Source: Bacteroidales bacterium (GTDB lineage Bacteria > Bacteroidota > Bacteroidia > Bacteroidales > JAEINX01). Taken from it: 64,000 bases of DNA. The translations under genes and the position numbers were made by a program. A model generated the notes under the pieces. The model had not been told where the DNA came from and made no database searches. It worked only from the letters and a program-made list of their open reading frames with translations. The DNA lies in the NCBI GenBank assembly GCA_016342645.1, contig JAEINX010000001.1, positions 34,582 to 98,581 on the forward strand, read 5' to 3'. Shown here in pieces: positions 12,613 through 57,700 of this stretch (positions within the stretch are counted from its first letter, which is position 1; each line of letters opens with the position of its first letter).

Positions 12613-15111
12613 TTACTTAAGAATCAGTTTCTTAACTTTTGTTGAAAATTCGCCAATAAACTTAAGATGATAAATTCCGGATTGATACTTTGTGAGATCA
12701 AGAATCACCTCATCATTACCCTTAAGGTTAAAAACTGCAACAGTTTTTCCGCTTGAAGCGAAAAGAATCACTTTATTAAATTCTTTAACATTATTGATTT
12801 TTATGCTTCCATCTGAAGGATTTGGATAAACTGATATTTCCCTGTCAATATTTAGTGATAAACTTTTTGTGATGTTAATTACACTATACTCACCATCGCT
12901 CGAAGGATAAACTTCTTCGGTATAAGCATCATAATAAGGATTAAGCATGGTATATTCTATAGGGATAATAGATTTTGTTGTTGAATTCCAAACTTTTAGA
13001 ATAATTGGATTACCTGCTTCATATCCTTTTTCAAGATTTGTTGTACTGAAAACAGCAAGTTCATTATCAAAAGCATAATTAGAATTAATTTTCATTGCTC
13101 CTACTAAAGTTTCGTCAGCGAAGGCAGCAACTTCATCACCAATATTTAATCCATCAATATAAATTGAATAAACCGGATCAGCAGCATTTCCTCCCGTGAA
13201 ATTAAAGTATTCGGTAGTGATTTTTGACGCATTTGAGAATTTTTTATCAGTTGAAGGATAAATTAAAACATCGTCATTATTCATTTTAACGAGGTAGCCT
13301 TCGGTCGGAATTAGGTTTCCAATTCCGTTTATCCAGTTAGGCCCGATTTTGCGAAGCATATCGCCGGTTGAGTTCCTTACGAAATCAAGATTTTCTAAAA
13401 CATCTGTGAACGCAACAATGGCGTCAATTGGAGAATCAAGCAACATACTGATAAAATGATAACCGGTAGATAAACCAATGGGAGTTTGTGGATCAATCGG
13501 CTCACCTGATAAATACAAATCTTCCTCTCCGGTCATTTTAAATAAATAACCCTCGGTGGTAACCCAATCACCAATTCCATTTATCCAATTCGGGCCTATC
13601 TTTCTTAGCATATATCCAAGTGAATTTCTTACATAAGCCAAATTATCGCCCATAATATCACCTAATACAGCCATCATATCAGGTTCCGAAAATATAAGAT
13701 TTGTTGAAACAAATTGAAATCCTACATATAAATTAATTGGTTCGGAACATGGGCCGCAACTACTAAAACATACAAGGTCTAAAACTGTATTAACTTCAGG
13801 TACTGTAAAAAACCGGTTAGTATATTGAGAACATTCATCGGGTACTATTTCGGCATCATCCCATGTTATTCCATTAATAAATTTATATTCATAGAAATCA
13901 TTGGAAGTAAGAATAGTTGTGTATGTATAAATATCGTTTCCGGTTGTAGTCATTTCAGTAGCACCGGGATCCCATCCCTGGAAACCACCTGCAACATGTA
14001 CTCCGTCTGCTGAAACTTCTTCGTTGCTCATGTCAACCTGGAAAGTAATTTCAACATCAACCGGAGGATTGCCGCATGGGCCGCATTCACCGTAACATAC
14101 AACATCTAAAGTGGTGTTAACATCAGGAACAGTAAGAAATCGATTATTATTGTTCGAGCATTCTGGTGGTACCATTTCATCTTCTCCCCATTCGTCTCCA
14201 TTGAGGTACTTAAACTCATGGTATTGTTCGCTTGTCAAAGTAAGGGTAACAGCGTAAATATTATCTCCCATATCTGATAATTCGGTTGAGGTTGTATTCC
14301 AACCCTGAAAACTTCCTGCAACATGAACTCCGTCTGCTGAAACTTCTTCGTTAGTCATATCAACCTGAAAAGTTACATCTACTTCAACAGGCTGTCCGCC
14401 ACATGGATCACAACTTCCAAAACAAACAAGGTCTAAAACAGTATTCGCATCAGGCACTGTCAGGAATCTGTTATTATTATTGGAACACTCGGGAGGAACG
14501 CTTTCATCTTGTCCCCATTGATTTCCATTAATGAATTTGTATTCGTAATAATCACCAACCGAAAGAATAAGAGTTACCTGATAAACATTATCGCCAACAT
14601 CGGTAAGTTCGGTTGTTCCAGGATCCCAACCCTGGAAACTACCAGCAACATGAACACCATCGACTGAAACTTCTTCATTTGTCATATCAACCTGAAAAGT
14701 AATTTCTACTTCAGGGGGAGCACAAACGACACAACTACCAAAACATACAGCTTCCAAAACTGTGGCATCTTCGGGAACTGTGATAAAACGATTTCCGTTT
14801 TGGGCACAACCTGCCGGCACACCTTCATCTTGTCCCCATTGATTACCATTTACGAATTTATACTCAAAATACGCTCCAACTTCTAAGTCTAACGTAATTG
14901 CGTAAATTGCATCCGTTTCTATAAAGAGCTCGGTGGCAGCCGGATCCCATCCCTGAAAACTTCCTGCAACATGAACACCGAATTCAGAAACAATCTGTTC
15001 GGCCATGTCAACCCTAAAGGTGACGTCAACAGCATTTGCTTTATTTGTAAATCCGATAAGAAATACCGTAATTAGCAAAATGCCTGTAAATTTTGTGATA
15101 AAATTTTTCAT
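12613..15111 (-). CDS. Secreted protein: 4x Cys-containing starch-binding-domain-like repeats + shared cassette + T9SS CTD
   Basis: Signal peptide, then four ~105-aa repeats (F.VDM...GVHVAGSFQGW...YEYKF.NG..WG.DE.VP.EC...NRF.TVP....L..VCFGSC..C). Cassette repeats A/B follow, then the GGNAAD domain and a CTD (ISVYPNP...YHLKF). Confidence 0.85.
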   Translation of the reverse strand: MKNFITKFTGILLITVFLIGFTNKANAVDVTFRVDMAEQIVSEFGVHVAGSFQGWDPAATELFIETDAIYAITLDLEVGAYFEYKFVNGNQWGQDEGVPAGCAQNGNRFITVPEDATVLEAVCFGSCVVCAPPEVEITFQVDMTNEEVSVDGVHVAGSFQGWDPGTTELTDVGDNVYQVTLILSVGDYYEYKFINGNQWGQDESVPPECSNNNNRFLTVPDANTVLDLVCFGSCDPCGGQPVEVDVTFQVDMTNEEVSADGVHVAGSFQGWNTTSTELSDMGDNIYAVTLTLTSEQYHEFKYLNGDEWGEDEMVPPECSNNNNRFLTVPDVNTTLDVVCYGECGPCGNPPVDVEITFQVDMSNEEVSADGVHVAGGFQGWDPGATEMTTTGNDIYTYTTILTSNDFYEYKFINGITWDDAEIVPDECSQYTNRFFTVPEVNTVLDLVCFSSCGPCSEPINLYVGFQFVSTNLIFSEPDMMAVLGDIMGDNLAYVRNSLGYMLRKIGPNWINGIGDWVTTEGYLFKMTGEEDLYLSGEPIDPQTPIGLSTGYHFISMLLDSPIDAIVAFTDVLENLDFVRNSTGDMLRKIGPNWINGIGNLIPTEGYLVKMNNDDVLIYPSTDKKFSNASKITTEYFNFTGGNAADPVYSIYIDGLNIGDEVAAFADETLVGAMKINSNYAFDNELAVFSTTNLEKGYEAGNPIILKVWNSTTKSIIPIEYTMLNPYYDAYTEEVYPSSDGEYSVINITKSLSLNIDREISVYPNPSDGSIKINNVKEFNKVILFASSGKTVAVFNLKGNDEVILDLTKYQSGIYHLKFIGEFSTKVKKLILK
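12862..13731 (-). repeat. Shared C-terminal cassette copy 1 (repeats A+B 13255-13731, GGNAAD domain 12862-13212)
   Basis: YVRNSLGYMLRKIGPNWINGIGDW and FVRNSTGDMLRKIGPNWINGIGNL, then FNFTGGNAADPVYSIYIDGLNIGDEVAAF. Confidence 0.85.
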
Positions 15112-15276
15112 AAGTAATAGTTTTTATTAATAAATATGTTTAATTAGTTTATAATTCCAATGATAAACGGCTTAAAATTAGTAAATTTTAATAGATGTAA
15201 CAAAAAAAACAGGTTTTTTTTTAATTTTTTGGAAATAAATGAAAATTTTATTATGGAAGCCCTTGGAACTTACTGA

Positions 15277-15290
15277 TGCAAACGTTTGCT
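15277..15290. promoter_or_regulatory. LacI-family operator-like palindrome tgcaaacgtttgct
   Basis: Matches the TGnAAnCGnTTnCA LacI-family pattern at 13 of 14 palindromic positions. It lies 166 nt upstream of the ATG at 15111. Confidence 0.55.
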
Positions 15291-15342
15291 ATGAAAGGTA
15301 TTTTAAAGAAATAAAATGAATAAAAAAAAGAAATTCATACCT

Positions 15343-16350
15343 TTAGGTCGAATTTCTGATAATAAGTTTTGTTTTTATTTGCTTTTCCTCCGGTAAAAAA
15401 TCTTCATCTCCATTTTTAATTCTTTTAAACAGCAGTTTTGTTGCTTCCCTGCCTATTTCATATCCGAATTGATCAATTGAAGTCAGGCTTGGAGTTGTTA
15501 TTTCCGCACTAAAGCTATTTTCGAAACCAATAATTTTAACATCCTCGGGGATTTGTAATCCTAATGCTTTACTTGCTAACATTATACCAAAAGCTGTTTT
15601 GTCGTTGACAGCAAAAACACCATCCGGCCTTTCAGCTTTTTTAAAAACTGAAAGTGCTATTCTTCGGCTATCTGAAAAAGTATCGCACGGAAAAAAAAGA
15701 TTTTGATCAATGGGAATACTATTATCGGTTAAAGCATTTTTATAACCTTCGTACCTGTTTTTACCGATTGAAAGGTTTGTTGGGGCCGAAAATATAGCGA
15801 TCCGTTTACAACCTCTTTCTATTAAATGAGTAACAGCAATGTAAGCTCCATGGTAATCATCCGACATCACTTTATCAACATTTAATTCATCGCTAATCCT
15901 GTCGAATAAAACTAATGGAATTTTACAACTAATTAATTTTTTGATGTGGGAAAGGTCTTTAGTTTCTTTTGATATTGACACCAAAACACCATCAACTCTA
16001 TTTGATAACAGGCTTTGTGTGTTAATAACCTCGCGTTTGTAAGATTCATTTGATTGTGATATAAAAACATTAAAGTCGTTATTGTAGGCAATTTCCTCAA
16101 CTCCACTTATTACGGTTGAAAAATAACTATGCATTATCTCCGGAATAATTAGCCCGATTGTTCTTGTCGATTTATTTCTAAGGTTCAAAGCAATCTGATT
16201 TGGTTTATATCCAAGCAAATCGGCAAGTTCTTTTACGGCTTTTTTTGTCTTAGGGCTTATGTCGGGATGGTCGCTTAATGCTCTGGAAACAGTAGAGATA
16301 GAATATCCTAATTTTAAGGCAATGTCTTTTATTGTTATCTGATGTTCCAT
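15343..16350 (-). CDS. LacI family transcriptional regulator
   Basis: N-terminal HTH ITIKDIALKLGYSISTVSRALSD followed by a periplasmic-binding-protein-like sugar domain. The ORF track starts at a GTG (16359); the ATG at 16350 is preferred. Confidence 0.9.
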   Translation of the reverse strand: MEHQITIKDIALKLGYSISTVSRALSDHPDISPKTKKAVKELADLLGYKPNQIALNLRNKSTRTIGLIIPEIMHSYFSTVISGVEEIAYNNDFNVFISQSNESYKREVINTQSLLSNRVDGVLVSISKETKDLSHIKKLISCKIPLVLFDRISDELNVDKVMSDDYHGAYIAVTHLIERGCKRIAIFSAPTNLSIGKNRYEGYKNALTDNSIPIDQNLFFPCDTFSDSRRIALSVFKKAERPDGVFAVNDKTAFGIMLASKALGLQIPEDVKIIGFENSFSAEITTPSLTSIDQFGYEIGREATKLLFKRIKNGDEDFLPEEKQIKTKLIIRNST

Positions 16351-16418
16351 AGCAAACACGAAATATTAAAATACTTAACCGACAAAAATACAAAAAGTAT
16401 TTAGATAGAAATGTTTTT

Positions 16419-16432
16419 TGCAAACGATTGCA
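16419..16432. promoter_or_regulatory. LacI-family operator-like palindrome tgcaaacgattgca
   Basis: 12 of 14 palindromic positions match, with the same half-site as 15277-15290. It lies about 70 nt upstream of the lacI start, suggesting autoregulation. Confidence 0.55.
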
Positions 16433-16486
16433 TTAATTCATTAAAAAAACTTGTTACTTGTTTTTTTTCTTTTGCTATAAATATCG

Positions 16487-19400
16487 TTATAAAATTATAA
16501 GTTTTTGAATTTTAAAGTTATTATCCGATTGAATTTTAACATAATAAACTCCGGTTTTCAAATCCGAAATATTTATTGAATGAGAAATATCACTTTTAAA
16601 AAGAAGCTGCTCACCAAGCGAGTTAAAAATTGTTATTGAAAGCCGGGAATCTGCAGGCAAAAAATAAATAATATCACGGGCAGGATTAGGATAAAATGAT
16701 AGCTTTTCTTTTTGAGAATTTATTGAAGATAAAGATTTTTCAACATTGATAACACTATAAAAACCATCATCTGTGGGATAAACTTTTTCAATGTATGCTT
16801 CATCATTATCACTTATCATTTCATATTCAAATGGAATTATTGATTGAGTTGAAAAATCCCAAACTTTTAAAATTATTTGATTACCTGATTTATATCCTCC
16901 TTCGGAATTAGTTGTACTAAAAACCGAAAGTTCATTATCAAAAACATTTTGAGAGTTGATTTTGACTGCACCGATAATATTATTGCCTTCAAAAGCAGCT
17001 ATTTCATCACCAATTTCCAAACCTGAAACATAAATCGTGAAAACAGGATCTGCTGCGTTTCCACCTTCGAAATCGAAATGCACAGGTTTTAAATTTTCTG
17101 CTCCCGCAAATTTTTCCTTTGAATCAGGATAAATCAGAATATCCGAATCATTCATTTTTACGAGATAGCCCTCTTTTTGATTTAGGTTTCCAATTCCATT
17201 TACCCATACAGGGCCAATTTTGCGAAGCATATTACCGCTTGAATTTCTAACAAAATTTAGATTGTCTAAAACATCATTAAAAGCCACTAAGGCATCCATT
17301 TGATTTGTTCGCAAATAACTAATAAATTGGTAACCGCTTAAAAGTCCAATAGGAGTTTGAGGATCAATAAATTCTCCTGCCACTTCAAAACTGTCGGCAG
17401 AATTCATTTTAACCAAATATCCTTCGGTTGTAATCCAATCACCGATTCCATTCACCCATACAGGCCCGATTTTTCGAAGCATGTTTCCTTCTGAATTTCT
17501 TACAAAATCAAGATTGCTGTTTAGAATATCCGATAAAACCTGAACCATTTCCGGATTATCAGGAATTAAATTTGAAGAAATGATTTGATAACCTGCATTT
17601 AAATCAAATTCAAGCATATGAGTTCCGGGTAATATTTCGATTTGCCATATAATTTCATCAGTTTGATTATTCGGAACATTATCACTAACAATGGCTGTTA
17701 GCGTATGCTCGCCAACATTTGATTCTTCGGCAAGTATTGAATAGCTTGAAATTTCTGAAACTAATTCATCATCAAACATCCAACTGTAAATTAAATTGTC
17801 ATTCTCGGGATCCGAAGCTACAATCGAAAAGTCGATAGTTTCGCCAAGCTGCATCGAAATATTTAATTGTTCGGGTTCATAACTAATGATTTCAGGAGGT
17901 AAGTTTGGTAAAACAAAAGCTTGGTTTGGAGTCATTCCGCTTACTGGCATCGTTGTTGAAACATAAGGTTCGAAAAATGCATAAACCTTCGATAAAGTGG
18001 GATGATTTCCTGTTGAGTTTCCTAAGGGGAATGATTTAGGAATTATTTGATTATCTTCTTCAGAAATATGAACTGAAATAACTATTCCCTGAGGGTTGTT
18101 GAGAGAGTTCCACGGAATTGATATTTCCGTCAATCCGTTTTCCTGCCAGCCTTCATAAGAATTGCATCCTGCACCTCCCGGATATTGCCAGCCTTTTGCT
18201 TCCCATTTATTTAATTGGATTGAGCCTCCGCCACCTTCGATTGCTACTTGATATTCCGGCAGGAAAGGATCTGCAAAATCAACTCTTCCCCATGAACCTG
18301 TGGAAGCTCCGCTTCCTGAAATTTGATCGGTGTCGATATTTACAAAAAGATCACCTTCTGAATTCAGATCAAATTCATAAAAACCTATATAAAGATTTTG
18401 GTCGTCCCAGGTTATAAAAACCGAATATTCATCAAAATCCATTAATTCAGTTTCAGGATCAAAATCGTTTGTACCGTCAATATTTACTGAATGGGGTGTT
18501 GAACCGGATAAAGTCGTAAAATTCGCAATGTTTTCTCCTTCAATTTGATTACCGTTTAAATCCATTATGTTCTCTGCAATAATCTGTCCTGCATCACCGG
18601 GTATCCAATTTTCCTGAATGTTTAGGTGAACTTTTCGCCAATCCGATTGACGAACAGCCGAAACCAAAGTGTAATTATTTGAAAAAGAAACAAGCGAATA
18701 ATTTGTTATATTTTGAGAAGTTGCGAGATCGACAGCTTCGCTAAAAGTTAATTCAACAGTATTTTGATCAATTTGAAAAGCCAGGTCATTTAATTGCGGA
18801 GGTATGAAATCCATGTTTTGAGCGGCAAGAATATTTAATTCAGGTACAACTGTTCCCGAAGGCGTTGAAGTCGGGCCTGCAAATAATCTTGTATTAAATT
18901 GATTATATCCTGTTATTTCATCACCTTTAACCAAAGTTCCTTCGAACTCAATATTGTGATTAGCCCCACCATTTCCGAGTATCAATGCAACAGTTGCTCC
19001 TGAAGCTGAATTTCGTTGGCCGCAATATGAGCCGTAATCACCCCAGATTCTTTGTATGTGATCTTTACCCGACCAGATTAAGTCCATCAGACCGGGCGAC
19101 CAACCTGATTTTATATATCCGTTTCCATCAAAAAAGTCGTAATAAACATCAAGATAATTAACTTCGGAAGTTAGTTCAATGGTTTTATTTACACCCGATT
19201 GCGAGAAGTTAACCCTGGCTATATCGCCGGAACTTTGCAGGATATCAATTTCATAAATTGAGTTCTGTTGATTAGGATAAACATCGGAAAGTGCTGCAAC
19301 ATGATTGTTGGAGTTTTCATTATAATCGCCATCGGTTTCAGCCCAGTAAGCCATATCTGATCCAACCACGGAATAAGCTACTCCCATATCGTTTTTATAA

Positions 19401-21217
19401 AATAACCAGTTTATTTTCCCTCCGATACTTTCGAAAACAGCGAAAATTTTATCGTTATGAATTACAACTTCATCTACCCCATCATGATCAACATCATTGT
19501 AAAAAGCAGCAGGGCCTGCCGAATATTGTCCGTCTGCCCATCGGGAGGCTTCGGCATAAACATTTGCATTTTTAATATGAGCGGAATAACGATGCTCCCA
19601 ATCGGCAATTTCTCCATCGGTATGCCAGCCGGTTTCATGTAGATTAATCATAAGAATATACCAGGCAAGTTGAGCCAAATTATTATCGGGGGCTGTCATA
19701 ATGTTATTATAAGCATCGCTCCAAACGTATCCATAATTCCATTTAGGTTCATGAAAATCGGAATGAGAAGCTGTTGAAGCCCAATTTATATACCAGCTAT
19801 TATTGCTTCCGCCATATCCTCCTTCACCACCGAGAAGACCGTAAGTTCCGGGTGTGATCTCAGCACCTGTACCATTAAAATCGGAATTCATCATAGCATC
19901 TTCTAATTTCCAAACATTAACACCCGGATAATTATCATGGCAATACCATAAAACACTTTCATAATTGTCGAGGAAGAAAGTTCCGTCATGTTCATTCATT
20001 TCGGCAGCAACTTCCCAATCGGTTCCATAAACGCAAATATTATATTGTCCGATACCTGCAATTTGATTCTTTGCTGCCGTAGCATTATAATGCATATTAC
20101 CAACAAAGGTATTATTAATAGGGATAACTCTTAAATCCACTCCCGAACCATTATTCATCCAATGTATCTTCCGGTTATCGTAGCCGTTAAGATGAGGCCC
20201 GTCATCCAAAACCACTCCCCAAACACCGTGTTGTTGCCAATTGTCGCCAAGCCAGTCAATCACTCCTGCATCGGGATAACTTCCCGGTGCAAGCCATACA
20301 CGCTCGGGAATCCAGGCTGTACGGGGTTCATAATTATACCTATAATCAACCATATCGCATTCAACACCTACCGACCAATTATTCATATTGTTATTGGTAA
20401 AGGGCATAATATGTTGCCCGAGAGCAGAGGTCATCATTGAAACAATGCCCTGTGAGGCAAGGTTAGTCAGCCAATCATTAAATTCAGGATTATGCCATTG
20501 TGCGGCAGGCATCAATGTGCCTGACATATGAAAATTTCCCGGAGTTGAAGTTGCCTCGTGTACCTGTAAAACTTCATCGAAACCACTACCTTCCAAACCA
20601 CTTTGTCCGTTGGGGCTACCATAAAAAACTTCAGTATATGTGAGTCCCTGATTGCCGTGATGGACAAAGGCACAATTTCCGTTTGCATCAATATTTTTTC
20701 CGTTGGAATGGAAATCATCAGCTTGTTTTCCATCAACAAATATTGTTAAATGAAATTCCATATCCTCAGGTTTTGTATCTGATGCAATATTGGTTTGCAT
20801 TTCCCAAAGATTTAAGTCGGGTGTACGCAGTTGATAAGTTTCATCTTTTGACATTTCCTTTATTTTTAGATCGAAATGCCTGTCAAGAATTATATTTTCA
20901 TTGAATTTATTATTTATTTTTAATTCAAGAAATACATCTGAATTTTCAAAAAGGTCTTCAACAATCTCGTTATGGTTTCTGATAACCATATTATCGAAGG
21001 TAATTCTAAGAAATAATTGTTCGCCATCGGTTTTAGCAAAAACCGAACTGATATCTCCTGTTTGGGTATTACAATCCCCAATTTCATCAAAATCTATAAT
21101 ATCGGATTTCCCCCAAAATTTCACATCTCCGCTAATAATTTGTCCAAAAGATAACTTAGCTGAAAAAGACAGTAAAATTATCATTATAAAAAAGTAAAAA
21201 AGTTTGTTTTTTTTCAT
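16487..21217 (-). CDS. Giant secreted GH57-like glycoside hydrolase with Ig-like domains, shared cassette and T9SS CTD
   Basis: Signal peptide. FVHHGNQ, WIPERVW and VLDDGPH resemble GH57 conserved regions I, III (nucleophile Glu) and IV (acid/base Asp). Ig/PKD-like segments follow, then cassette A/B, the GGNAAD domain and a CTD (LSFYPNP...YYVKI). Confidence 0.6.
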   Translation of the reverse strand: MKKNKLFYFFIMIILLSFSAKLSFGQIISGDVKFWGKSDIIDFDEIGDCNTQTGDISSVFAKTDGEQLFLRITFDNMVIRNHNEIVEDLFENSDVFLELKINNKFNENIILDRHFDLKIKEMSKDETYQLRTPDLNLWEMQTNIASDTKPEDMEFHLTIFVDGKQADDFHSNGKNIDANGNCAFVHHGNQGLTYTEVFYGSPNGQSGLEGSGFDEVLQVHEATSTPGNFHMSGTLMPAAQWHNPEFNDWLTNLASQGIVSMMTSALGQHIMPFTNNNMNNWSVGVECDMVDYRYNYEPRTAWIPERVWLAPGSYPDAGVIDWLGDNWQQHGVWGVVLDDGPHLNGYDNRKIHWMNNGSGVDLRVIPINNTFVGNMHYNATAAKNQIAGIGQYNICVYGTDWEVAAEMNEHDGTFFLDNYESVLWYCHDNYPGVNVWKLEDAMMNSDFNGTGAEITPGTYGLLGGEGGYGGSNNSWYINWASTASHSDFHEPKWNYGYVWSDAYNNIMTAPDNNLAQLAWYILMINLHETGWHTDGEIADWEHRYSAHIKNANVYAEASRWADGQYSAGPAAFYNDVDHDGVDEVVIHNDKIFAVFESIGGKINWLFYKNDMGVAYSVVGSDMAYWAETDGDYNENSNNHVAALSDVYPNQQNSIYEIDILQSSGDIARVNFSQSGVNKTIELTSEVNYLDVYYDFFDGNGYIKSGWSPGLMDLIWSGKDHIQRIWGDYGSYCGQRNSASGATVALILGNGGANHNIEFEGTLVKGDEITGYNQFNTRLFAGPTSTPSGTVVPELNILAAQNMDFIPPQLNDLAFQIDQNTVELTFSEAVDLATSQNITNYSLVSFSNNYTLVSAVRQSDWRKVHLNIQENWIPGDAGQIIAENIMDLNGNQIEGENIANFTTLSGSTPHSVNIDGTNDFDPETELMDFDEYSVFITWDDQNLYIGFYEFDLNSEGDLFVNIDTDQISGSGASTGSWGRVDFADPFLPEYQVAIEGGGGSIQLNKWEAKGWQYPGGAGCNSYEGWQENGLTEISIPWNSLNNPQGIVISVHISEEDNQIIPKSFPLGNSTGNHPTLSKVYAFFEPYVSTTMPVSGMTPNQAFVLPNLPPEIISYEPEQLNISMQLGETIDFSIVASDPENDNLIYSWMFDDELVSEISSYSILAEESNVGEHTLTAIVSDNVPNNQTDEIIWQIEILPGTHMLEFDLNAGYQIISSNLIPDNPEMVQVLSDILNSNLDFVRNSEGNMLRKIGPVWVNGIGDWITTEGYLVKMNSADSFEVAGEFIDPQTPIGLLSGYQFISYLRTNQMDALVAFNDVLDNLNFVRNSSGNMLRKIGPVWVNGIGNLNQKEGYLVKMNDSDILIYPDSKEKFAGAENLKPVHFDFEGGNAADPVFTIYVSGLEIGDEIAAFEGNNIIGAVKINSQNVFDNELSVFSTTNSEGGYKSGNQIILKVWDFSTQSIIPFEYEMISDNDEAYIEKVYPTDDGFYSVINVEKSLSSINSQKEKLSFYPNPARDIIYFLPADSRLSITIFNSLGEQLLFKSDISHSINISDLKTGVYYVKIQSDNNFKIQKLIIL
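16736..17614 (-). repeat. Shared C-terminal cassette copy 2 (A+B 17126-17614, GGNAAD domain 16736-17086)
   Basis: FVRNSEGNMLRKIGPVWVNGIGDW and FVRNSSGNMLRKIGPVWVNGIGNL, then FDFEGGNAADPVFTIYVSGLEIGDEIAAF. Confidence 0.85.
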
Positions 21218-21392
21218 AAGAGTTTAAATTATTGAATATCAAAAATATTCCCTATTAATTATTACAAAAATAATAAAAATTCAGGTTTTGATAATTAAAA
21301 AACTATAAATTTATTTTTTTAGTATAAAAGTTTTTTTTTAATTTCGTTCTTTAAAAATTGAAAATATTGGATTGTTAATTGAATTTATAGTT

Positions 21393-28772: not shown

Positions 28773-28774
28773 TT

Positions 28775-38977: not shown

Positions 38978-39008
38978 AATGAAATGTTTTTGCAAATATA
39001 CAATATAT

Positions 39009-47760: not shown

Positions 47761-48644
47761 TACCTGTTTTGTACAACTTTGTATTTATTTTTTTCAAGTT
47801 TTACAAAAGTAAAATTAAAACTTTTACAAATAAAATTCAATGAAGATTTTACAGATACTTCTTTTGTAAAATAACCGGTGTAAGTATAATCATCGGGGTT
47901 TTTCAGGTCAGTAATAATTTTTACATTATATTGCCGTTCAAGCTCTTCAAATACATTTGATAATGATTCGGCAGTAAAAATGAATTTATTGTTTTTCCAG
48001 CTGAGGATATTTTCGGCTTTTATATTTTCGACCTTTCCAAGCTTGTTTTTATTATCTAAAATCACAATTTCCCCGGGACTGATAATAAAATCAACATTTG
48101 TTTTTGTACTTGATACTTTTATTTTTCCTGTTTCGCAAAAGACTTTGTAGTCATTATTTCTTGCGTAAATATTAAAACCGGTTCCCAGAACTTCTGTGAC
48201 ACCGTTTTCAGACATGACTTTAAATTTCTTACCTCTTTCTACTTCAAAAAATGCTTCTCCTTCAAATGCAATTTCTCTGTCGAAATTCCACCAATATGGA
48301 TGATATAAAATTGAAGATTCGGCATTCATTTCAACAACTGATCCATCAGGCAAAACCTGACTGATATGTTCACCTTTTTCACACTGTATTTTTGTTGTGA
48401 AAAATTTCAGAAATAAGGACGTTCCAATCAATAGAATCACAATTGCCGCTGCCGAGACTTTGAGCCAAATCATAGAAATAACTTTCGTTTTTGATTTAAC
48501 ATGAGGCCGATCTGATAATTTATCAGAAATAATTCCCCATATTTCATCTTTGTTTTTAGCAAAAGGAATTTCTACCTTTTTTAAAAAGTCATCATGCTCA
48601 GCATTACTTTGATTATAGCTTATATGTTTATCAAGGTTTTCCAT
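47760..48644 (-). CDS. FecR family anti-sigma factor
   Basis: Cytoplasmic N-terminus, a single TM helix (VSAAAIVILLIGTSLFL), and a periplasmic FecR domain followed by a C-terminal DUF4974-like part. Confidence 0.8.
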   Translation of the reverse strand: MENLDKHISYNQSNAEHDDFLKKVEIPFAKNKDEIWGIISDKLSDRPHVKSKTKVISMIWLKVSAAAIVILLIGTSLFLKFFTTKIQCEKGEHISQVLPDGSVVEMNAESSILYHPYWWNFDREIAFEGEAFFEVERGKKFKVMSENGVTEVLGTGFNIYARNNDYKVFCETGKIKVSSTKTNVDFIISPGEIVILDNKNKLGKVENIKAENILSWKNNKFIFTAESLSNVFEELERQYNVKIITDLKNPDDYTYTGYFTKEVSVKSSLNFICKSFNFTFVKLEKNKYKVVQNR

Positions 48645-49130
48645 TTACATTTTCATCATACTTCTTAGCTTCGACAAAGCTGCACTCATTCTTTTTTCAA
48701 CAGCTTTAACACTGATCTGCAATCTTTCGGCGATTTCTTTGTAGGATAAGTCTTCCATACGGCTCATTAAAAACACAACTCTTTGTTTTTCCGGTATTTT
48801 TGCAAGTGAAATTTCATAAGTTTTTAATAATTCAGCTGATTCCATGTGATTATTTGTATCTTCTTCTTTGAAATTAAATTTAATCTCCTTCAAATATTCG
48901 TTTGCAATTTTTTCTCGTCTTAAATGACTTATAAACATATCCCCTGAAATTTTATAAAGCAGGCTTTTTATTTTTCTCGGTTCATAATAAAATTGTTTTT
49001 CCCAGATTTTGATGAATGTTTCCTGAGCAATGTCGGTCGATAATTCTTCGTTTCCCGACCTGTAGAACAAATAGCATCTAATTCCTTCAAAGAACTGATC
49101 ATAAACATACGTAAACTCTCTTTTCGTCAA
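48645..49130 (-). CDS. ECF (sigma-70 family) RNA polymerase sigma factor
   Basis: Region 2 (DIAQETFIKIWEK) and region 4 HTH (LSYKEIAERLQISVKAVEKRMSAAL). The apparent start is TTG, and the stop abuts the FecR start. Confidence 0.8.
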   Translation of the reverse strand: MTKREFTYVYDQFFEGIRCYLFYRSGNEELSTDIAQETFIKIWEKQFYYEPRKIKSLLYKISGDMFISHLRREKIANEYLKEIKFNFKEEDTNNHMESAELLKTYEISLAKIPEKQRVVFLMSRMEDLSYKEIAERLQISVKAVEKRMSAALSKLRSMMKM

Positions 49131-49229: not shown

Positions 49230-49817
49230 TTAAGGTTTACCACCTTTATCTCCCCATTTTTTCATACTAAATTCAAAAGTTCCTTCTTCAGTAGTTTTGG
49301 TTGCCCACTCGTCGCATTCTCCATCACCGAAATCAATTGTTGCAACCCATGTATTTTCTTTGTAAAATTCAATTATTCCTGAAACGATGTAATCACATCC
49401 TTCGATTTTTACCAATGGTTCGACAACAACTTTTTTAAATTCCAATTTTTTTCCACCTTTTCCGTCTAATTTGAACTCATGAGTTTCACCGTCAACAGTT
49501 TTGGTTGCAATATTATCGCATTGACCATCGCCAAAATCAATAATTGCTACAACTTCACCGTCCAAACGAAATTCAATTGTTCCTTCAACAATAAATTTGC
49601 AATCATCTAATTTTACCAGGGGTTTAGTAATAACTTTTTCAAAATCACCATTGCCTTTAAGGTTAACATTATCTTCTTGGTTAAAAATAGCGTATTCCAA
49701 TGAGCTGCCTTCATCGTAAGAATTTTTATCGGATGATGAATCTTCTTTGTTGCACGAAGTTAATGCAATCATTAAAGCAAACGCAAACAAACTAAGAACT
49801 TTAATTGTGTTTTTCAT
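49230..49817 (-). CDS. Lipoprotein with two ~65-aa Cys-containing repeats (unknown function)
   Basis: Lipobox LTSC. The repeats are PLVK.(D/E)(D/G)C.(F/Y)IV.G.IEF.......VA.IDFGDG.CD..ATKT..(D/E)(G/E)(E/G)T..F. Confidence 0.65.
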   Translation of the reverse strand: MKNTIKVLSLFAFALMIALTSCNKEDSSSDKNSYDEGSSLEYAIFNQEDNVNLKGNGDFEKVITKPLVKLDDCKFIVEGTIEFRLDGEVVAIIDFGDGQCDNIATKTVDGETHEFKLDGKGGKKLEFKKVVVEPLVKIEGCDYIVSGIIEFYKENTWVATIDFGDGECDEWATKTTEEGTFEFSMKKWGDKGGKP

Positions 49818-50042: not shown

Positions 50043-50071
50043 AAAAGGGAACCGGAACCGATTCCCCTTTT
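50043..50071 (-). terminator. Rho-independent terminator after the 50091 gene
   Basis: aaaagggaa / ttcccctttt stem with a single bulge, followed by a T-run on the minus strand. Confidence 0.6.
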
Positions 50072-50090
50072 GAATTATGAATTTCTACAA

Positions 50091-53000
50091 TTATTTTATT
50101 GTAATCTTTTCAGTAATTATTTCATTATTTGTTTCAAGTTGAATGAAATAAATTCCTGATTGATAATTTGAAGTATTTATGTTTAAAATAGAATTATTTG
50201 ATTCGTTGTCGAACATAATTTGACCAACTGAATTCAATACCCTAATACGGTTTATAGTATTGTTTGATACTATATTCAGTACATTTGTAGCCGGATTTGG
50301 ATAGATACTTACTTCTGTTAAAGCTGTTTTCTCAGTTCCAATAGTTCCTTTTGTTACATTAACAACACTATATTCGCCATCAATCGCAGGGAATTGTGTT
50401 TTTGTGTAAGCTGTAGGATGTTCATTATCAAAAGTGTAAGTAGCAGAAACTATAGTTTGACTTTGTGCATCCCAAACCTTCATAATGACCTCGTTTCCTG
50501 CCTTGTAACCTTGTCCGTTTGAAATTGTACTAAATATAGGAATACTGTTATCAAGTGCATTTTCTGAAGAAATAAGGCTTGTTCCAACTAATTTGTTAGC
50601 GTCATAAACAGCAATTTCATCACCAATGTTCAAGCCTGAGACATAAATAGTATAAACCGGATCAGCGGCATTACCACCTTCGAAATTAAAATTATTTACA
50701 GCTTCCGGTGTTAATGAAGATAATGTAGCCTTAACAGGAATATTATAAACTAATTCGTCATCTGCAAACATTTTAATTAAATAACCGTCTCCGGGATTAG
50801 CATTACCAATTCCGTTAACCCAATTAGGACCAATTTTTCTAAGCATTTCACCGTTTGAATTTCTGATATAATCCAAATTATCATTTAAAATTCCATCAAA
50901 TGCAAAAAGAGCATCAACTGATTGAGCCGGGAGATAACTTACAAATTGATAACCTGTTTCAAGATTAATAACTGTTAATGGGTTTAATTCAATTCCTTCA
51001 AATTCGAGAGATTCTGCAGCAAACATTTTAAAGAGGAAACCTTCGGTAGAAATCCATTCACCTATTCCGTTTACCCAGTTTGGTCCGATTTTTCTTAAAA
51101 CTTCTCCATTTGAATTTCTTACATATTCAAGATTTTCATTTAAAATATCCTGTAAAACGACAAGCATATCAGGGTTATCAACTTCAATTCTTGATGAAAT
51201 AAATTGATAACCAGTGTTTAATTCAACGACCTGAATTGTTCCGCCTGAGTTAAATCCGAAAAAATCAAGATATTTTGTCATTAGTTCTTCTTTAGTTGCT
51301 TCGCTATCATCTAATCCACCAAATTCAAATGATGCCCCAATAGTTGCATAATCACCTGCATCAAAGGCAACTCCACAACCATAATTAGGTGATTGATTTT
51401 CAAAAATCAATACTGCTGATCCGGTGGGAGAAATATGATCAATCCAACTGTTTTGACCTGAATAATTAAACAACATTCCTTCTGTAAATGATCCGTTTAA
51501 GCCCAGAATAGTTTCAAGATCGGATGAACCATCAGCTTCACCATTAATATTAAACATAGGATGAACAGGTGTTGGATCATCATAATACCATGTGTCGCCA
51601 CCTTCCATATAAAGTTTACCTCCTCCGTTTAGGAAATCAGCAAGGTCTTGTCCTTCGTCATCGGTTAGAACATGATTATCGGAATAAATACCAAGACATA
51701 CAAAGGCTGAAGAATACAGTGATAGATCAGCAGGAATAGATGTTGTATATTCGCAAGCAACATTTAGATTATCAATACAATTCTGAATTACCGGACCTGA
51801 CGTAGGTGTATCATCAAGATCAATAATGATAACCGGAATCTGTCCGATTACAATGTTAAATTCACCTGAAGCAACAATACCAAAGTCGGCTTCTATATCG
51901 AAATCAAAATTAGCGAAATGACCTGTTGGAGTACCGGCATCAGCAGTTATGTTAAATACTTGTTCCTCGATGTTTTCAGGGGTAATATTTCCATAAGATT
52001 GTGGTTCGGAATTAATTGTAACGTAAGGATCTGAAGAAAGAAGTTCACCAATTACATTATAAGCATCAGCCGAACCTGTATTTTTAACAAAAATTGTAAT
52101 ATCTGCTGTTTCGCCCGGATCAATTGTTCCATTACCCGAAATCTCGAAAGTAACAAATTCCAGAATAGGTGCATGAGCTTTAATAACAAATGTTCCTGTC
52201 CATATTTCTGTTCCATCAGTAGCTTCAAAACTAAACATTATATTATGATCATCAGGTACATCATATCCAACACTAATTTCAAAACCGTCAGTAACTGAAA
52301 CAACTTCATCAGGATCAACATCACCGTAATTTTCAGAATTATCGTTTATTGTTGTGTATAAATCAGTTGTTGCAATAGTAACATCAACATTATTTGCAGT
52401 TTCAATACCAACATTTTCTATTGCAATTGTTAATTTCACAGTTTCGCCATATTCAAGCATTCCGTTATTATTTCCGGCCGCATCATTAATTTCGTAAGAA
52501 TCCATAAGAATATATGGGCCGTCAGGAGCAGTAACAACAACTGTTCCTATATGAGGTTGCCTGTTTTGTTTTGTAACAACTATGTCAACTACACCGGGAA
52601 CGGAAATCGGTTCTAATGAAACTATTGCCATTCCTGTTTCATCAGCTATACCACCACCATAAAGAACACCTTCTCTTGAGATTCCAACATAAGCGTAAGG
52701 TTCGGTAGTTACAGTAAAAGTTTCACTATTAAGCATCATAGCCCCCGGATAACTGATTGTCAATTCAGGTGGTTGGGAGTAATAGATCATTAATGAAGGA
52801 TCACCCATTAGACAATAAATTTCCCAGTAATAATCGCCACTTCCTGGAGCACCTTCTGCAACAGCAAGGTTTCCAATAAAAATCATTTGATCCTGAGTTA
52901 TATACCAATCTTCAATAGGTTCACCATGATCATGGAAAGTTCCATCATAAGCACCGAGGGTAGTTTCTTCGTAAGAAGGAGGATCTTCAGATATTTCGCC

Positions 53001-54602
53001 AACACCAACTCCCCAGTAATAATCAGGATCCCACATTGTGCTATTTGACCCGCCAATATATCCAACTGCTCCTTTATTTTCGGCTCTAAGGATTTCTTCG
53101 GCAAAACAGTCAATATCATACTCGCTTGATGAGCAACAATTTCCCACGAGTAAGCCATATTTGCTTTCATTTTGTAGACCTGAAATATCACCAATAGTAA
53201 AAGAAGGATCACCCCAACCGGATGGACTGCAATGGGCAGTATAATTTCCAAATGATACACCATCGCTAACATTTTGAATAATATTGGCAGAATTACTACC
53301 TGATTCGGGATATAGATAAACATGAGCTGTTAGACCGTGAGCAGTATTAAAATAATTTTCTGTTCCATAATTAATTTGACCGTTTCCCCAATCGTATCCG
53401 TGGCTGCCGTCCATACCTGCAACTAATACAACTTCATTTAGGTAAGAAGGATCAGGCATCAAATATTGTTCGTATTCAAGAGTTTTATCAATTTGGGGTT
53501 GTAATTGGCCGGCATTATTTGCCGAAAATCGGCCATAATACATATCTGGTAACATATCGCCTGTGTATTCACAATAATATAAATCGGTAACATGGTAACC
53601 GGTAGTTCCTGAAAAAGCAGGAATTTGTGCAACATCACCAACAAATAATACAAATGCAGGTGGTGGATCATCAGGTGTACCGGCTTGATATAAGCCCTCT
53701 AAATAATTTTTTATTGAGGTTGTGGTTGTTCCAACATTAGGATCGTTAGTATAAGCTTCGATAATTTCAAATCCTTTTTTTGTTTTCCACTCAATGAATG
53801 CTTGGAGTTGTGTCTCAAACATTGGATCGGAAACGATAACATACTTAACCGGAGAATCGGTGATCAGTTCTTTGCTATCAAGGGTTTTGTAATTAAAAAT
53901 TTGACTTTTCAAGCCATTGAAGAAAATATTTGAATTGTTTTTCTTTTTATTAATAGTTTGCGTTACATCAGCTCCTTCAAATAAAACTTCAACATTAATT
54001 TCTTCATAAATTTTTATGGTGTTAGTAACCGGATTATATTGAATCGGAGAAATATTTAATCGAGCAATTCTGACACCTCTCATAATTCCCAAAACATCAA
54101 CACTAACAAGAGTTGTTGGTGCGAAAGAGTTTCTTTGATAAGCTCTTTGATTAATTACTATTTCTGTTTCACCCTCTTCACCTTTGTTAACCTGCGGTTG
54201 AGTTGGAAAAACAATGTTTGTTATTCCCAATTCTTCTAAAGTGTATTCATTTACTTTAAAATCAATCACATTAACACTTGGAGTAGAATTCATTGGAATT
54301 TCTATCAACCTTCTGTTAACAGGTAATTTAGGGAATCCGATTTTCTGTGTATAAGAATATCCTTCAATATTAAATTCAGTAAAATCACCTTTATCGGTTT
54401 TTACCTCAAAGAAATTGATATCAGAAATTGAATTTTCAACTTGCAATTTCAGATAGGTGTTCTCAACCACTTCAATTGCCGTTTTTCCATCATTAAGTTT
54501 TATGTTTTCAGCATAAAGACTAAATGAAGTTAGAAAAAAACAAACAGCCATTAAAATTGCTTGTAATTTTCTCATTTTGTAGATTGTTTTCATTTTTCTC
54601 AT
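50091..54602 (-). CDS. C25 (gingipain-like) cysteine peptidase with Ig-like domains, shared cassette and T9SS CTD
   Basis: Propeptide-like N-terminus (FEVKTDKGDFTEFNIEG..GFPKLPV), then TAHCSPSGW (His) and GNCCSSSEYD (Cys). The cassette and CTD follow (VSIYPNP...YFIQL). The likely true start is MRKLQAIL at 54575. Confidence 0.8.
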   Translation of the reverse strand: MRKMKTIYKMRKLQAILMAVCFFLTSFSLYAENIKLNDGKTAIEVVENTYLKLQVENSISDINFFEVKTDKGDFTEFNIEGYSYTQKIGFPKLPVNRRLIEIPMNSTPSVNVIDFKVNEYTLEELGITNIVFPTQPQVNKGEEGETEIVINQRAYQRNSFAPTTLVSVDVLGIMRGVRIARLNISPIQYNPVTNTIKIYEEINVEVLFEGADVTQTINKKKNNSNIFFNGLKSQIFNYKTLDSKELITDSPVKYVIVSDPMFETQLQAFIEWKTKKGFEIIEAYTNDPNVGTTTTSIKNYLEGLYQAGTPDDPPPAFVLFVGDVAQIPAFSGTTGYHVTDLYYCEYTGDMLPDMYYGRFSANNAGQLQPQIDKTLEYEQYLMPDPSYLNEVVLVAGMDGSHGYDWGNGQINYGTENYFNTAHGLTAHVYLYPESGSNSANIIQNVSDGVSFGNYTAHCSPSGWGDPSFTIGDISGLQNESKYGLLVGNCCSSSEYDIDCFAEEILRAENKGAVGYIGGSNSTMWDPDYYWGVGVGEISEDPPSYEETTLGAYDGTFHDHGEPIEDWYITQDQMIFIGNLAVAEGAPGSGDYYWEIYCLMGDPSLMIYYSQPPELTISYPGAMMLNSETFTVTTEPYAYVGISREGVLYGGGIADETGMAIVSLEPISVPGVVDIVVTKQNRQPHIGTVVVTAPDGPYILMDSYEINDAAGNNNGMLEYGETVKLTIAIENVGIETANNVDVTIATTDLYTTINDNSENYGDVDPDEVVSVTDGFEISVGYDVPDDHNIMFSFEATDGTEIWTGTFVIKAHAPILEFVTFEISGNGTIDPGETADITIFVKNTGSADAYNVIGELLSSDPYVTINSEPQSYGNITPENIEEQVFNITADAGTPTGHFANFDFDIEADFGIVASGEFNIVIGQIPVIIIDLDDTPTSGPVIQNCIDNLNVACEYTTSIPADLSLYSSAFVCLGIYSDNHVLTDDEGQDLADFLNGGGKLYMEGGDTWYYDDPTPVHPMFNINGEADGSSDLETILGLNGSFTEGMLFNYSGQNSWIDHISPTGSAVLIFENQSPNYGCGVAFDAGDYATIGASFEFGGLDDSEATKEELMTKYLDFFGFNSGGTIQVVELNTGYQFISSRIEVDNPDMLVVLQDILNENLEYVRNSNGEVLRKIGPNWVNGIGEWISTEGFLFKMFAAESLEFEGIELNPLTVINLETGYQFVSYLPAQSVDALFAFDGILNDNLDYIRNSNGEMLRKIGPNWVNGIGNANPGDGYLIKMFADDELVYNIPVKATLSSLTPEAVNNFNFEGGNAADPVYTIYVSGLNIGDEIAVYDANKLVGTSLISSENALDNSIPIFSTISNGQGYKAGNEVIMKVWDAQSQTIVSATYTFDNEHPTAYTKTQFPAIDGEYSVVNVTKGTIGTEKTALTEVSIYPNPATNVLNIVSNNTINRIRVLNSVGQIMFDNESNNSILNINTSNYQSGIYFIQLETNNEIITEKITIK
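50349..51236 (-). repeat. Shared C-terminal cassette copy 6 (A+B 50742-51236, GGNAAD domain 50349-50696)
   Basis: YVRNSNGEVLRKIGPNWVNGIGEW and YIRNSNGEMLRKIGPNWVNGIGNA, then FNFEGGNAADPVYTIYVSGLNIGDEIAVY. Confidence 0.85.
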
Positions 54603-54675
54603 TTTTTAATTTAATTGATAATTATTTTATTTTGTTAATTTTAGTTAGATTCTGATATTTAAATAATATTGTAAA

Positions 54676-54713
54676 ATACCGAAACTCTTATGATTAAATA
54701 AAAGTTCCGGTAT
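54676..54713 (-). terminator. Rho-independent terminator after the 54729 gene
   Basis: 11-bp stem ataccgaaact / agttccggtat with 1 mismatch, followed by a T-run on the minus strand. Confidence 0.55.
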
Positions 54714-54728
54714 TTGAAATTTTTTATA

Positions 54729-57700
54729 TTAAATTATCACCATTACTTTTGATTCTGTGAATTTTTCAACAGAACCTTCAATTTCTAATTTGTACTGATA
54801 GATGCCAGGGGTGAAATCCGAGCAATCAATATTAACATTATAAGTTCCTTTTGATTGAACTTGATTGACAGGAATTGAAACTTGTTGTCCGAAAGAATTA
54901 AAAATAGTAAGTTTTACTTTACCTGCTTCACCGAGACCGTATGAAATAGTTGTATTTTTATTCAACGGATTAGGATAGTTATTGCCGAGGAAAGTGTTTG
55001 AAAGTATGTCTTCTTTGATTTTCAAATCAGAAAAATCAAATGTTCCATAGCTGTATTGTCCATCTTCGGTTGGGAAATTAACACCTGTAAAGGCATTATC
55101 GGCAGAAACTAATTCAAAATTAAAATCAGAGATTTCAATATTCTTATCATTATCCCAAACCTTAATTGTAAACGGATAATCAGGATTATAACCCTTACTG
55201 TCATTTAATGTTTCAAAAACAGTTAAAACGTTTTGATATTTATTATTGTCTGATAAGTTTTTACTAATTAAAGCAGAGCCAACGAGTGTTTTGCCATCAA
55301 AAATTCCAATTTCATCGCCAATGTTAAGATAGTTTTCACCATCAGAAATTTCATTTAGATAAATTGACCAGACAGCATCGGCAGCGTTTCCACCTTCAAA
55401 TACAAAGTGAAGTGGAATAGATTTTTCAGTATATGCTAATTTTTTACCTGAAGCAGGATAAATTAAAATATCCTCACTAAACATCTTGATCAAATAACCT
55501 TCACTTGGTTCAACATTCCCGATTCCGTTAACCCAGTTTGGTCCGATTTTTCTTAAAATTTCACCATTTGAGTTTCTTATAAAATCAAGGTTATCACCAA
55601 TTATTTCAGCAAATGCATCCATTGCGTCCATAGCATTTAAAGGTAAATAGCTAACAAACTGATATCCTGAATTGAGGTTTATCGGTGTTTGTGCATTTAA
55701 TTGCTCACCTTCAATAACCAATGTTTCGGAACCGATCATCTTAAATAAATATCCTTCTGTTACTGACCAGTCACCAATTCCGTTTACCCAATTAGGGCCA
55801 ATTTTTCTAAAAACTTCACCATTTGAATTTCTTACGTAATCAAGGTTATCGGTTAAAATGTTTTGAATTACGATTAACATATCATTTTCCAAAGGATCAA
55901 CACTTGAAGAAGCAAATTGATATCCTTCCGTAAGTTCGATTGTTTGGGTTGCGGCTGCACCTTCCTGAACAATAAGGGTAATAGGAATTGTAATCACCGG
56001 TTCGTCGGGATCGTTACTGCTGAGGCATAAATCGGCTGTATAAGTGTTTTCTTCCATGTCAGTTGCATCAAAATCAAGTGAAATTGTTTCCGATTCACCT
56101 GCTGCAATAGTACCGGCAGTTGGTGCTACAGCAAGCCAGCTTACAACATCAATAGTATAATCTTCAACTTCACCATAAGAAGTAGTTCCGCAAGGTTCCG
56201 GTGTGCCATAATATTGTAATCTGATTCTCATCCTTGTACTTCCTCCGGTCGCATCATCGGGAGGAATAATATTTGCGGTATAAACATCAGGGCCACCGTT
56301 AGTGCTTATTGCTTCATTATCGTCAAATTCTTCATTTTGATTCCAGTCAACCCAGATCATACATTCATCACCATTCCATGAGTTTCCATTAGTAATGGTA
56401 ATCGGATATGAGTCGCCTGCATTCATCGTTGTGGAAAGATTAGTGTAATCTCCGTATTCGGTACAATCAGATGAATTATTAATATCACCAACTTCAACAT
56501 TACTAATATATTCGTCGCATCCGCCACTTCCGTCACAATAATCTTTTCCACCTTTATTATCTTTGCTGTCAATGCTGATAGCAATATCATATTCAAGTTC
56601 AAGTTCCCCCTCATTAGTAATGACCAGTGATTCTGAACCTGTAGCATCGGGTTGCAATATCTTGGTAAATGAATTTTGAGAAACAGCGATATTTGGATTT
56701 CCCCATTGAATTGTTTGGGCAGGCCCTAATGATTCTCCTTCATCAAGGAAAGCAGTTACTTTAAATTGATAAATTCCATAATCAGGAAGATTGTCAATGA
56801 AAGTTAAATCAGTAGTAGTTCCAATTTGCTCTCCATCACGATAAACAATGAAATATTGAAAACCTGCAACCATTTCAAATTGCCATTCAAGGTCAACTGC
56901 ACCGGTTTCTTCATTTAAGTCAACAACTAAATCGGTTGGACGTGGAAGGTTATTGGTTTGGTAAGGTGAAACATAAGTCATTGCAGAACCTGATCGATTG
57001 TCAGTCCAGCAAGGATAAACCATTCCTCCATGAGCAGAAATTCCAAGATAATCACCAAAATAACCCCAGGCTAAACCCGAGATGGGAGAAGGTGTAAAAG
57101 ATACATCACTGACTTTAAAATCTTCCCAGGTTTCACCTCCATCAAAAGAGTTTGCTGCAAAAACTTCACATTGATTCGAGCTAACATTTCTGTCGTCATA
57201 GAAAACAACACTTAATGCTCCGCTTTCGGGATCACATGTTATCCATGGGAAATAATGTTCTTTACCTAATCCAGAAGGATCCTGATTAATTTTCACAGGT
57301 GTTGACCATGTGTCTCCACCATTTTCAGAACGAATAATGTAACAATCAATATCGTTGCCGGTATTAATTCCCGGAACTCCGACATTTGCCCACACAACAT
57401 AAACATTGCCTCTGTTTGGGCCATTACTATTATCAACTGCCATTGAAGGAAATGAATTAACCCTCATGTTTTTTGAAGTTTCTGTAGTTCTGATACCTCT
57501 AATATTATTTATTATTTTTGTCGGTGCTGCAAAACTTGCACCTCCATTAGTTGTTTTTGCCATACCAATAGCTTTTTCATCTTGAGGCCATCCATCGTAG
57601 ATTGCAAAAATCACATAAACTTCGCCATCAGGCCCTGTCTGGATATTAACTCCCTGACAATGTCCGTTTGCAATACCCTGACTGACGTTTATTGTACTTG

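Follow-up and report, generated by a model that had tools for sequence, protein, structure and literature searches.

Two previously undescribed extracellular domain families, here called A-B and GG, stand beside the T9SS (type IX secretion system) sorting signal of a set of secreted proteins encoded in 64,000 nucleotides of a Bacteroidales bacterium (GTDB lineage JAEINX01; assembly GCA_016342645.1, contig JAEINX010000001.1, positions 34,582 to 98,581 of the forward strand). Within this stretch, referred to as the window, seven secreted proteins with unrelated working parts share a tail of ~300 residues. It consists of a fixed pair of repeats (A-B) and, in most of them, a domain bearing the motif GGNAAD (GG) followed by a type A T9SS C-terminal sorting domain (CTD); we refer to A-B and GG together as the cassette. 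From sequence comparison and structure prediction we propose, with a probability of about 0.4, that A-B is a module for docking or binding through which cargo is organised on the surface of the cell.

The open reading frames (ORFs) of all seven proteins, lettered A to G, are present on the minus strand, and their segments lie as follows in window coordinates:

12613-15111, minus strand: protein A
13255-13737, minus strand: A-B unit of protein A (aa 459-619)
12865-13209, minus strand: GG domain of protein A (aa 635-749)
12616-12837, minus strand: type A T9SS CTD of protein A (PF18962, 4.8e-9; TIGR04183, 9e-9)
16487-21217, minus strand: protein B
17126-17608, minus strand: A-B unit of protein B (aa 1204-1364)
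16730-17080, minus strand: GG domain of protein B
16490-16702, minus strand: type A T9SS CTD of protein B (PF18962 and TIGR04183)
34973-37498, minus strand: protein C
35612-36097, minus strand: A-B unit of protein C (aa 468-629)
35222-35563, minus strand: GG domain of protein C
34976-35194, minus strand: type A T9SS CTD of protein C (PF18962 and TIGR04183)
39146-42814, minus strand: protein D
39152-39637, minus strand: A-B unit of protein D, at the extreme C-terminus, without GG and CTD
42945-45056, minus strand: protein E
43596-44081, minus strand: A-B unit of protein E (aa 326-487)
43194-43547, minus strand: GG domain of protein E
42948-43166, minus strand: type A T9SS CTD of protein E (PF18962 and TIGR04183)
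50091-54602, minus strand: protein F
50742-51227, minus strand: A-B unit of protein F (aa 1126-1287; sequence used for the AlphaFold2 model)
50340-50693, minus strand: GG domain of protein F
50094-50312, minus strand: type A T9SS CTD of protein F (PF18962 and TIGR04183)
54729-58460, minus strand: protein G
55455-55940, minus strand: A-B unit of protein G (aa 841-1002)
55014-55409, minus strand: GG domain of protein G, with two short insertions
54732-54986, minus strand: type A T9SS CTD of protein G (PF18962 and TIGR04183)

An initial annotation, made from the letters alone, had described seven secreted proteins sharing one C-terminal module, six of them continuing with a GGNAAD domain and a type A CTD. 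Both statements hold: each of the seven ORFs contains two repeats, and in proteins A, B, C, E, F and G the GG domain was located by tblastn and the terminal CTD by Por_Secre_tail (PF18962; 37-53 bits, cut-off 27) and TIGR04183 (30-52 bits, cut-off 23). Read by eye, all seven N-termini are basic and then hydrophobic, like signal peptides. The heads had also been called unrelated, and Pfam bears this out for six proteins: four CBM20/CBM48/X25-type modules in A, choice-of-anchor J and fn3 in C, Peptidase_C25 with its propeptide in D and F, Omp28 and fn3 in E, and BNR and GEVED in G. For protein B, in which Big_5 was found, the proposed glycoside hydrolase GH57-like identity is weak, the match to PF03065 (E = 0.0016) falling below the curated cut-off. 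In gene D a TAA stop directly follows repeat B, and no remnant of GG or of a CTD was found downstream of it. Since A-B is also terminal in 34 homologues, protein D is not necessarily a truncation. Directly downstream of this gene lies an unrelated AAA_14/DUF4143 ATPase gene (37778-38995, minus strand).

Repeats A and B are each ~83 residues long, with RKIGP occurring twice per protein, ~85 residues apart; the ~120-residue GG domain follows the second RKIGP, and GGNAAD occurs once in each of the six proteins that have it. The core motif R[NS]S.G.[MVI][LF]RKIGP.W[VI]NGIG stands twice in each protein, and translating the window in all six frames yields exactly these 14 copies. When the modules of protein F (both repeats, GG and the CTD) served as tblastn queries, they recovered 14 repeats and 6 GG domains, with nothing else significant for either in the window. 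Twenty columns are invariant across the 14 aligned repeats (L, G, S, L, R, S, G, RKIGP, W, NGIG, G, L, K), and invariant or near-invariant residues are concentrated in the hairpin RKIGPxW[VI]NGIG, present in both halves of A-B. The long consensus strings first written for these modules proved idealised: used as regular expressions, the one for repeat A matches 2 of 7 copies and those for repeat B and GG match none.

The cassettes of the window proteins are 44-58% identical in amino acid sequence, and mean paralogue identity differs by segment: 59.5% for A-B, 47.6% for GG and 29.2% for the CTD. Mean column identity reaches 67% in a set of 46 A-B sequences, made of the window copies and 39 external homologues that had been filtered so that they share <80% identity with one another. 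At the DNA level, A-B coding regions are 61-75% identical between window copies, with pS (proportion of synonymous differences) of 0.57-0.75, which is saturated (dS>1), against pN (its nonsynonymous counterpart) of 0.16-0.31, and dN/dS of 0.09-0.38. This saturation and these ratios mark old copies maintained by purifying selection, which is how their mostly synonymous differences had first been read. A-B is acidic, with an isoelectric point of about 4.1; six of the seven copies have 8-10 Lys/Arg residues, almost all at conserved positions, and protein D has 16. The Bacteroidota O-glycosylation motif D[ST][AILVMT] is absent from the cassettes.

Beyond the window, HMMER, run exhaustively over 1.84 billion representative proteins, detected cassette homologues in 6046 representatives at E<=1e-3, 3200 at E<=1e-10 and 498 at E<=1e-30. 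Those with a name come almost all from metagenome-assembled genomes (MAGs) labelled 'Bacteroidales bacterium', and a small clade, on short contigs, is labelled Candidatus Magnetoglobus. An eighth cassette protein, MBI9036509.1, is encoded on the same 100,004-bp contig as the window but outside it; the QueA of the window is 100% identical to MBI9036537.1 of this contig, whereas exact matches to protein A and QueA were absent from the contig index searched. A pattern scan of GTDB species genomes gave 244 matches; the best 77 of these 244 loci, from which the counts per MAG were taken, fall in three MAGs, with at least 46 in CAYWXI01, at least 30 in CAZBSL01 and at least 1 in JAIPAP01. CAYWXI01 is a close relative of the window genome, their QueA proteins being 91% identical. 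Because at least 46 cassette genes occur in this one related MAG, the cassette marks a large cargo set, and with 6046 representatives the module recurs far beyond this locus, contrary to the refuting case of a lineage-private linker.

The module had been reported as unrecognised, and it remains so against Pfam-A (2025 copy), NCBIfam release 20, PDB sequence profiles and Foldseek searches of PDB and BFVD. Within the full-length proteins, neither the A and B repeats nor GG matched Pfam-A or NCBIfam at E<=0.01. The isolated GG copies of the window gave 0 matches to Pfam-A at E<=10, and among the GG domains of 34 diverse members no Pfam-A family was hit in more than two. No consistent Pfam-A family emerged for A-B segments, either isolated (E<=10) or from 46 members (E<=1); scattered short matches, far below the cut-offs, were to AVR-Pik_HID, DNA_alkylation and DUF6944. 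Precomputed Pfam annotation of the homologues, very recent accessions included, places nothing over the cassette, NCBI names them only 'T9SS type A sorting domain-containing protein', and literature searches found no published description of the cassette. Dockerin_1 (PF00404) and Cohesin (PF00963) had no match within the cassette, whether in the window proteins or in the isolated modules. Pfam immunoglobulin-like (Ig-like) and carbohydrate-binding module (CBM) families matched neither GG nor A-B. Against PDB sequences, the A-B and cassette profiles found nothing, and the GG profile matched Lactobacillus SlpX (7qfk) only marginally, over 52 residues (E = 0.003), which is taken here as a lead and not as a family assignment.

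Three internal or neighbouring identities were considered and rejected. The repeats are not degenerate CTDs, hhalign giving a probability of 0.2% for A/B against the CTD, and GG is not a third repeat, as its comparison with the A/B repeat by hhalign shows no relationship; GG and the CTD are likewise unrelated (hhalign probability 0.1%). BACON was dismissed as the identity of GG, given that the BACON matches seen in some homologues fall in the heads.

The AlphaFold2 model of the A-B pair (168 residues of protein F, 46-sequence alignment) reached a predicted local distance difference test (pLDDT) score of 96.2 and a predicted template modelling (pTM) score of 0.89. It is one compact, rigid, all-beta unit of about eight strands and one short helix per repeat, and its secondary-structure string puts the conserved RKIGP and NW[VI]N on two consecutive strands. 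A solved structural family would have been indicated by a Foldseek hit at E<=1e-3 whose TM-score was meaningful, or by a profile match to a PDB sequence. Foldseek found no significant neighbour of the model in PDB (best E = 0.15, TM <=0.21) or in BFVD (best E = 8e-3, probability 0.33, TM 0.19). The predicted A-B fold is therefore one with no neighbour found in PDB and BFVD, which does not by itself prove a new fold. A model of the whole cassette from seven sequences was discarded (pLDDT 66, with Foldseek matches amounting to generic Ig-like noise), and GG, a mostly beta domain, is without a confident structural model.

The arrangement of the modules was counted in 321 A-B-bearing homologues. 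The commonest layout, in 208 (65%), is A-B, GG and CTD at the C-terminus. A-B stands at the very C-terminus without a CTD in 34, as in protein D; it is followed by another domain, mostly Fib_succ_major, in 59; and it lies within 70 residues of the N-terminus in 47. Two further proteins link the cassette to other modules. One, P0055, has a cohesin (aa 37-140, outside GG and A-B), GG and A-B without a CTD, and its gene adjoins that of a 926-aa CTD protein with a weak Dockerin_1 match, Cohesin and Por_Secre_tail:

Locus L080 (ENA ERZ795390 NODE_314), genes 7077-9857 and 10001-11407: the dockerin/cohesin/CTD protein and its neighbour P0055

This is also an observation of cohesin, together with a weak dockerin match, in Bacteroidota-type T9SS proteins. 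P0055 is a possible adaptor. The other protein, P0058, reads GG, A-B, GG and then, by eye, a dockerin-like tail in place of the CTD. The placement of the cassette just before the sorting domain, as first described, is thus the majority layout and not an obligatory one.

Co-occurrence with the type A CTD is nonetheless strong, with Por_Secre_tail in 50 of 50 long homologues scanned against Pfam besides the 208 of 321 above, and the family is expanded in a T9SS-bearing lineage. Both would be expected if A-B were an accessory recognition element for T9SS attachment or sorting, read by PorZ/PorU-like or shuttle proteins and routing a subset of the cargo. Since the type of CTD sets the destination of cargo in Flavobacterium, further sorting determinants are conceivable (PMC12618676). 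About one member in three, however, has no CTD or has its A-B unit N-terminally, P0058 has its dockerin-like tail where a CTD would stand, and no T9SS component genes were found next to the cassette genes of the window or of loci L078, L079 and L080. We regard such a sorting role as highly improbable.

The two parts of the cassette also differ in how they are deployed. A single A-B unit is present in 320 of the 321 homologues, with 0-7 copies of GG per protein; GG directly precedes A-B in 68, and arrays of GG without A-B occur in giant T9SS proteins, interleaved with Big_2, PKD or CarboxypepD_reg. Because GG can precede A-B, be repeated up to seven times or occur without it, what had been seen as one cassette is recurrent but is made of two independent domain families, A-B being a fixed pair and GG separate. 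GG behaves like a repeatable spacer-like domain, resembling Ig-like spacers (PKD, Big_2, fn3, CarboxypepD_reg) in being a beta domain of ~120 residues that is repeated and interleaved with others.

These properties of GG would suit a cassette that is a mere structural stalk or folding scaffold without a specific partner, either spacing the head from the outer membrane and its lipopolysaccharide (LPS) or stabilising the cargo around its passage through the T9SS. The position between head and CTD in 65% of members, the predominance of Gly, Pro, Trp and Asn among the invariant residues and the lack of detectable relation to any binding family are all consistent with it. Spacers, however, normally diverge fast between paralogues, and A-B is twice as conserved as the CTD; spacers repeat, which A-B never does; and a membrane stalk makes little sense where A-B is N-terminal, ends a protein without a CTD or accompanies cohesin or dockerin-like modules. 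A stalk without a partner appears to us possible but somewhat unlikely.

The heads attached to the cassette are as diverse among homologues as in the window. The 50 homologues contain 55 Pfam families in all, including C25, C10, M14 and M28 peptidases, GH18, Omp28 and GEVED, and none except the CTD is common to more than eight. Many of the heads are degradative enzymes, and A-B, which like CBMs is independent of position, repeats a pseudo-symmetric motif whose conserved residues (Trp, Asn, Arg and Lys) are typical of glycan-binding sites. It could accordingly be asked whether A-B is a new CBM for a common environmental polymer or particle, and not for the cell's own surface, with GG as a linker. 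There is a precedent in Cel5A, a T9SS-CTD cellulase of an uncultured Bacteroidetes (Ca. Paraporphyromonas polyenzymogenes), whose 'hypothetical' C-terminal region bound cellulose; unannotated C-terminal regions of T9SS-CTD enzymes, to which the cassette may be likened, can thus bind (PMC5831590). Against this, one substrate-matched CBM fits poorly with heads that include cysteine and metallopeptidases, an Omp28-like redox protein and BNR/GEVED proteins as well as glycan-active proteins, and protein A already has four starch-binding modules. The strictly single copy, the unusually high conservation between paralogues and the absence of similarity between A-B and CBM families in Pfam or PDB also speak against it, and we consider a new CBM an unlikely explanation.

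The docking or binding module that we favour rests on several features of A-B taken together. Its conservation is unusually high, each protein has strictly one copy, neither its position nor the type of anchor is fixed, it is joined to functionally unrelated heads (peptidases, glycan binders, a redox protein), and in an acidic domain its Lys and Arg residues are nearly confined to conserved positions. Together these features point to an autonomous module with one shared partner, and away from a spacer or a substrate-matched CBM. The compact, confidently predicted fold counts for the docking module as well. The role first suggested for the cassette, in surface retention, complex assembly or the binding of a common ligand, would be compatible with all of this evidence.

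According to this proposal, a Sec signal peptide would bring the proteins to the periplasm and the type A CTD would direct them through the T9SS. PorU would then cleave the CTD in the linker after GG and the new C-terminus would be attached to anionic LPS, in line with what is described for the T9SS, where cleavage falls in the linker preceding the CTD and LPS is joined to the C-terminus thus formed (PMC8545088, PMC11969387). In the majority layout, GG and then A-B would form a membrane-proximal stalk beneath the head. A-B would recognise one common partner, either a cell-envelope glycan or another surface protein, possibly the GG or A-B of a neighbour, and a single surface layer would thereby hold and arrange dozens of cargo proteins, peptidases and glycan-binding proteins among them. 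Members lacking a CTD, such as protein D, could be retained in that layer non-covalently.

Several points weigh against docking. The invariant residues of A-B, being largely Gly, Pro, Trp and Asn, could be purely structural, serving turns, the core or the A:B interface. A structural relative of A-B with known function may exist beyond PDB and BFVD. All members of the family come from uncultured organisms. Finally, two proteins with a T9SS tail in the window lack the cassette, which is dispensable for T9SS cargo in general.

Two known systems offer parallels, in both cases an analogy of logic only, without homology. The K/HA domains of RgpA, Kgp and HagA in Porphyromonas gingivalis are thought to mediate adhesion or complex formation at the cell surface. 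Like the cassette, they are non-catalytic modules common to T9SS cargo, C25 peptidases included, and stand between the catalytic head and a type A CTD (for the T9SS context of these adhesin domains, see PMC5445135). They differ in having no sequence relationship to the cassette, Cleaved_Adhesin matching none of the seven proteins, both C25 peptidases included, at E<=0.01; in occurring several times per protein, whereas A-B occurs once; and in being confined to three proteins, whereas the cassette is found on dozens of unrelated heads per genome.

Dockerin-cohesin systems, including the X-module-dockerin dyad, likewise place one small conserved module on each of many unrelated secreted enzymes, whatever their catalytic type, and some proteins with A-B and GG carry a cohesin (P0055) or, by eye, a dockerin-like tail (P0058). 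In contrast to the dockerin, a Ca-binding duplicated helix-loop of ~70 residues, A-B is a 166-residue all-beta unit of two repeats. The parallel could be carried further, with A-B as a new fold that, in uncultured anaerobic Bacteroidales, would play the part of the dockerin in an enzyme assembly built on the surface by way of the T9SS. The one A-B handle on each cargo protein would then bind the GG of anchored neighbours or a dedicated envelope glycan, and dozens of LPS-anchored and non-anchored enzymes would be knitted into a cellulosome-like coat. We think this version quite unlikely. The T9SS CTD itself (TIGR04183/PF18962) resembles the repeats in being adjacent, beta-rich and similar in size to one A or B repeat, but the two are unrelated by profile-profile comparison, and A-B also occurs without a CTD and at N-termini.

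T9SS cargo is normally described as a head and a CTD, and to our knowledge how such cargo is held and arranged on the surface after cleavage has been worked out for no more than a few proteins, from Porphyromonas and Flavobacterium. In the present case, one environmental Bacteroidales lineage puts the same conserved unit on at least 46 secreted proteins per genome, beside the predicted LPS attachment point. A-B and GG are two new domain families in a familiar role, as an accessory or targeting module that multidomain secreted proteins have in common. If A-B is indeed a docking module, it would represent a new way to build a multi-enzyme cell surface in Gram-negative bacteria and also a ready-made, portable display handle; even if it is only a stalk, two large domain families with 6046 representatives deserve database entries. 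The cassette offers a clean and testable approach to the way in which the T9SS-dependent surface of environmental Bacteroidales is built, its mechanism so far being a proposal.

The smallest form of the architecture is P0009, a 'minimal' cassette protein of 503 aa found in many MAGs, which consists of a 116-aa head, A-B, GG and the CTD. At loci L078 and L079 its gene stands immediately upstream of a series made up of selA, a Y1 transposase gene, selB, and TusA/DsrE-like and selD-like (AIRS) genes; its neighbourhood combines other cargo genes with selenocysteine machinery.

Gene E in the window contains an in-frame TGA (44945-44947, minus strand) that must be read through for the ORF to reach 45056. 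The codon takes the place of the first Cys in a thioredoxin-like W-C-G-x-C-P motif, which would become W-U-G-A-C-P, and a segment like a signal peptide is present only in the ORF extended through it; the NCBI gene call (MBI9036544.1, 654 aa) starts downstream of the TGA. There is a weak match to the NCBIfam 'Omp28-related selenoprotein' family, and contigs of related MAGs encode SelA, SelB and SelD. The hairpin downstream of the TGA is modest, and Rfam finds nothing there. Judged from these sequence features, gene E is probably a mis-annotated selenoprotein gene.

Between genes E and F, on the minus strand, lie a TonB-dependent receptor gene with an N-terminal FecR_C/STN-like domain (45289-47760), a FecR anti-sigma gene (47760-48644) and, by eye, an ECF (extracytoplasmic function)-sigma-like gene (48645-49130); at 49230-49817 there is a small repeat-containing protein with, again by eye, a lipoprotein-like N-terminus. 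This sigma/FecR/TonB-receptor group and the small repeat protein may regulate the flanking cargo genes. Between proteins A and B, a regulator that looks LacI-family-like by eye (15343-16359, minus strand) suggests a small alpha-glucan locus of cassette-bearing cargo around these two proteins. The two T9SS-tail proteins without A-B or GG are encoded by tandem paralogous ORFs on the plus strand (21372-23324 and 23607-25538; 650 and 643 aa). A weak C-terminal Por_Secre_tail match is all that Pfam detects in them, and both are apparently cargo of the T9SS that does not belong to the cassette set.

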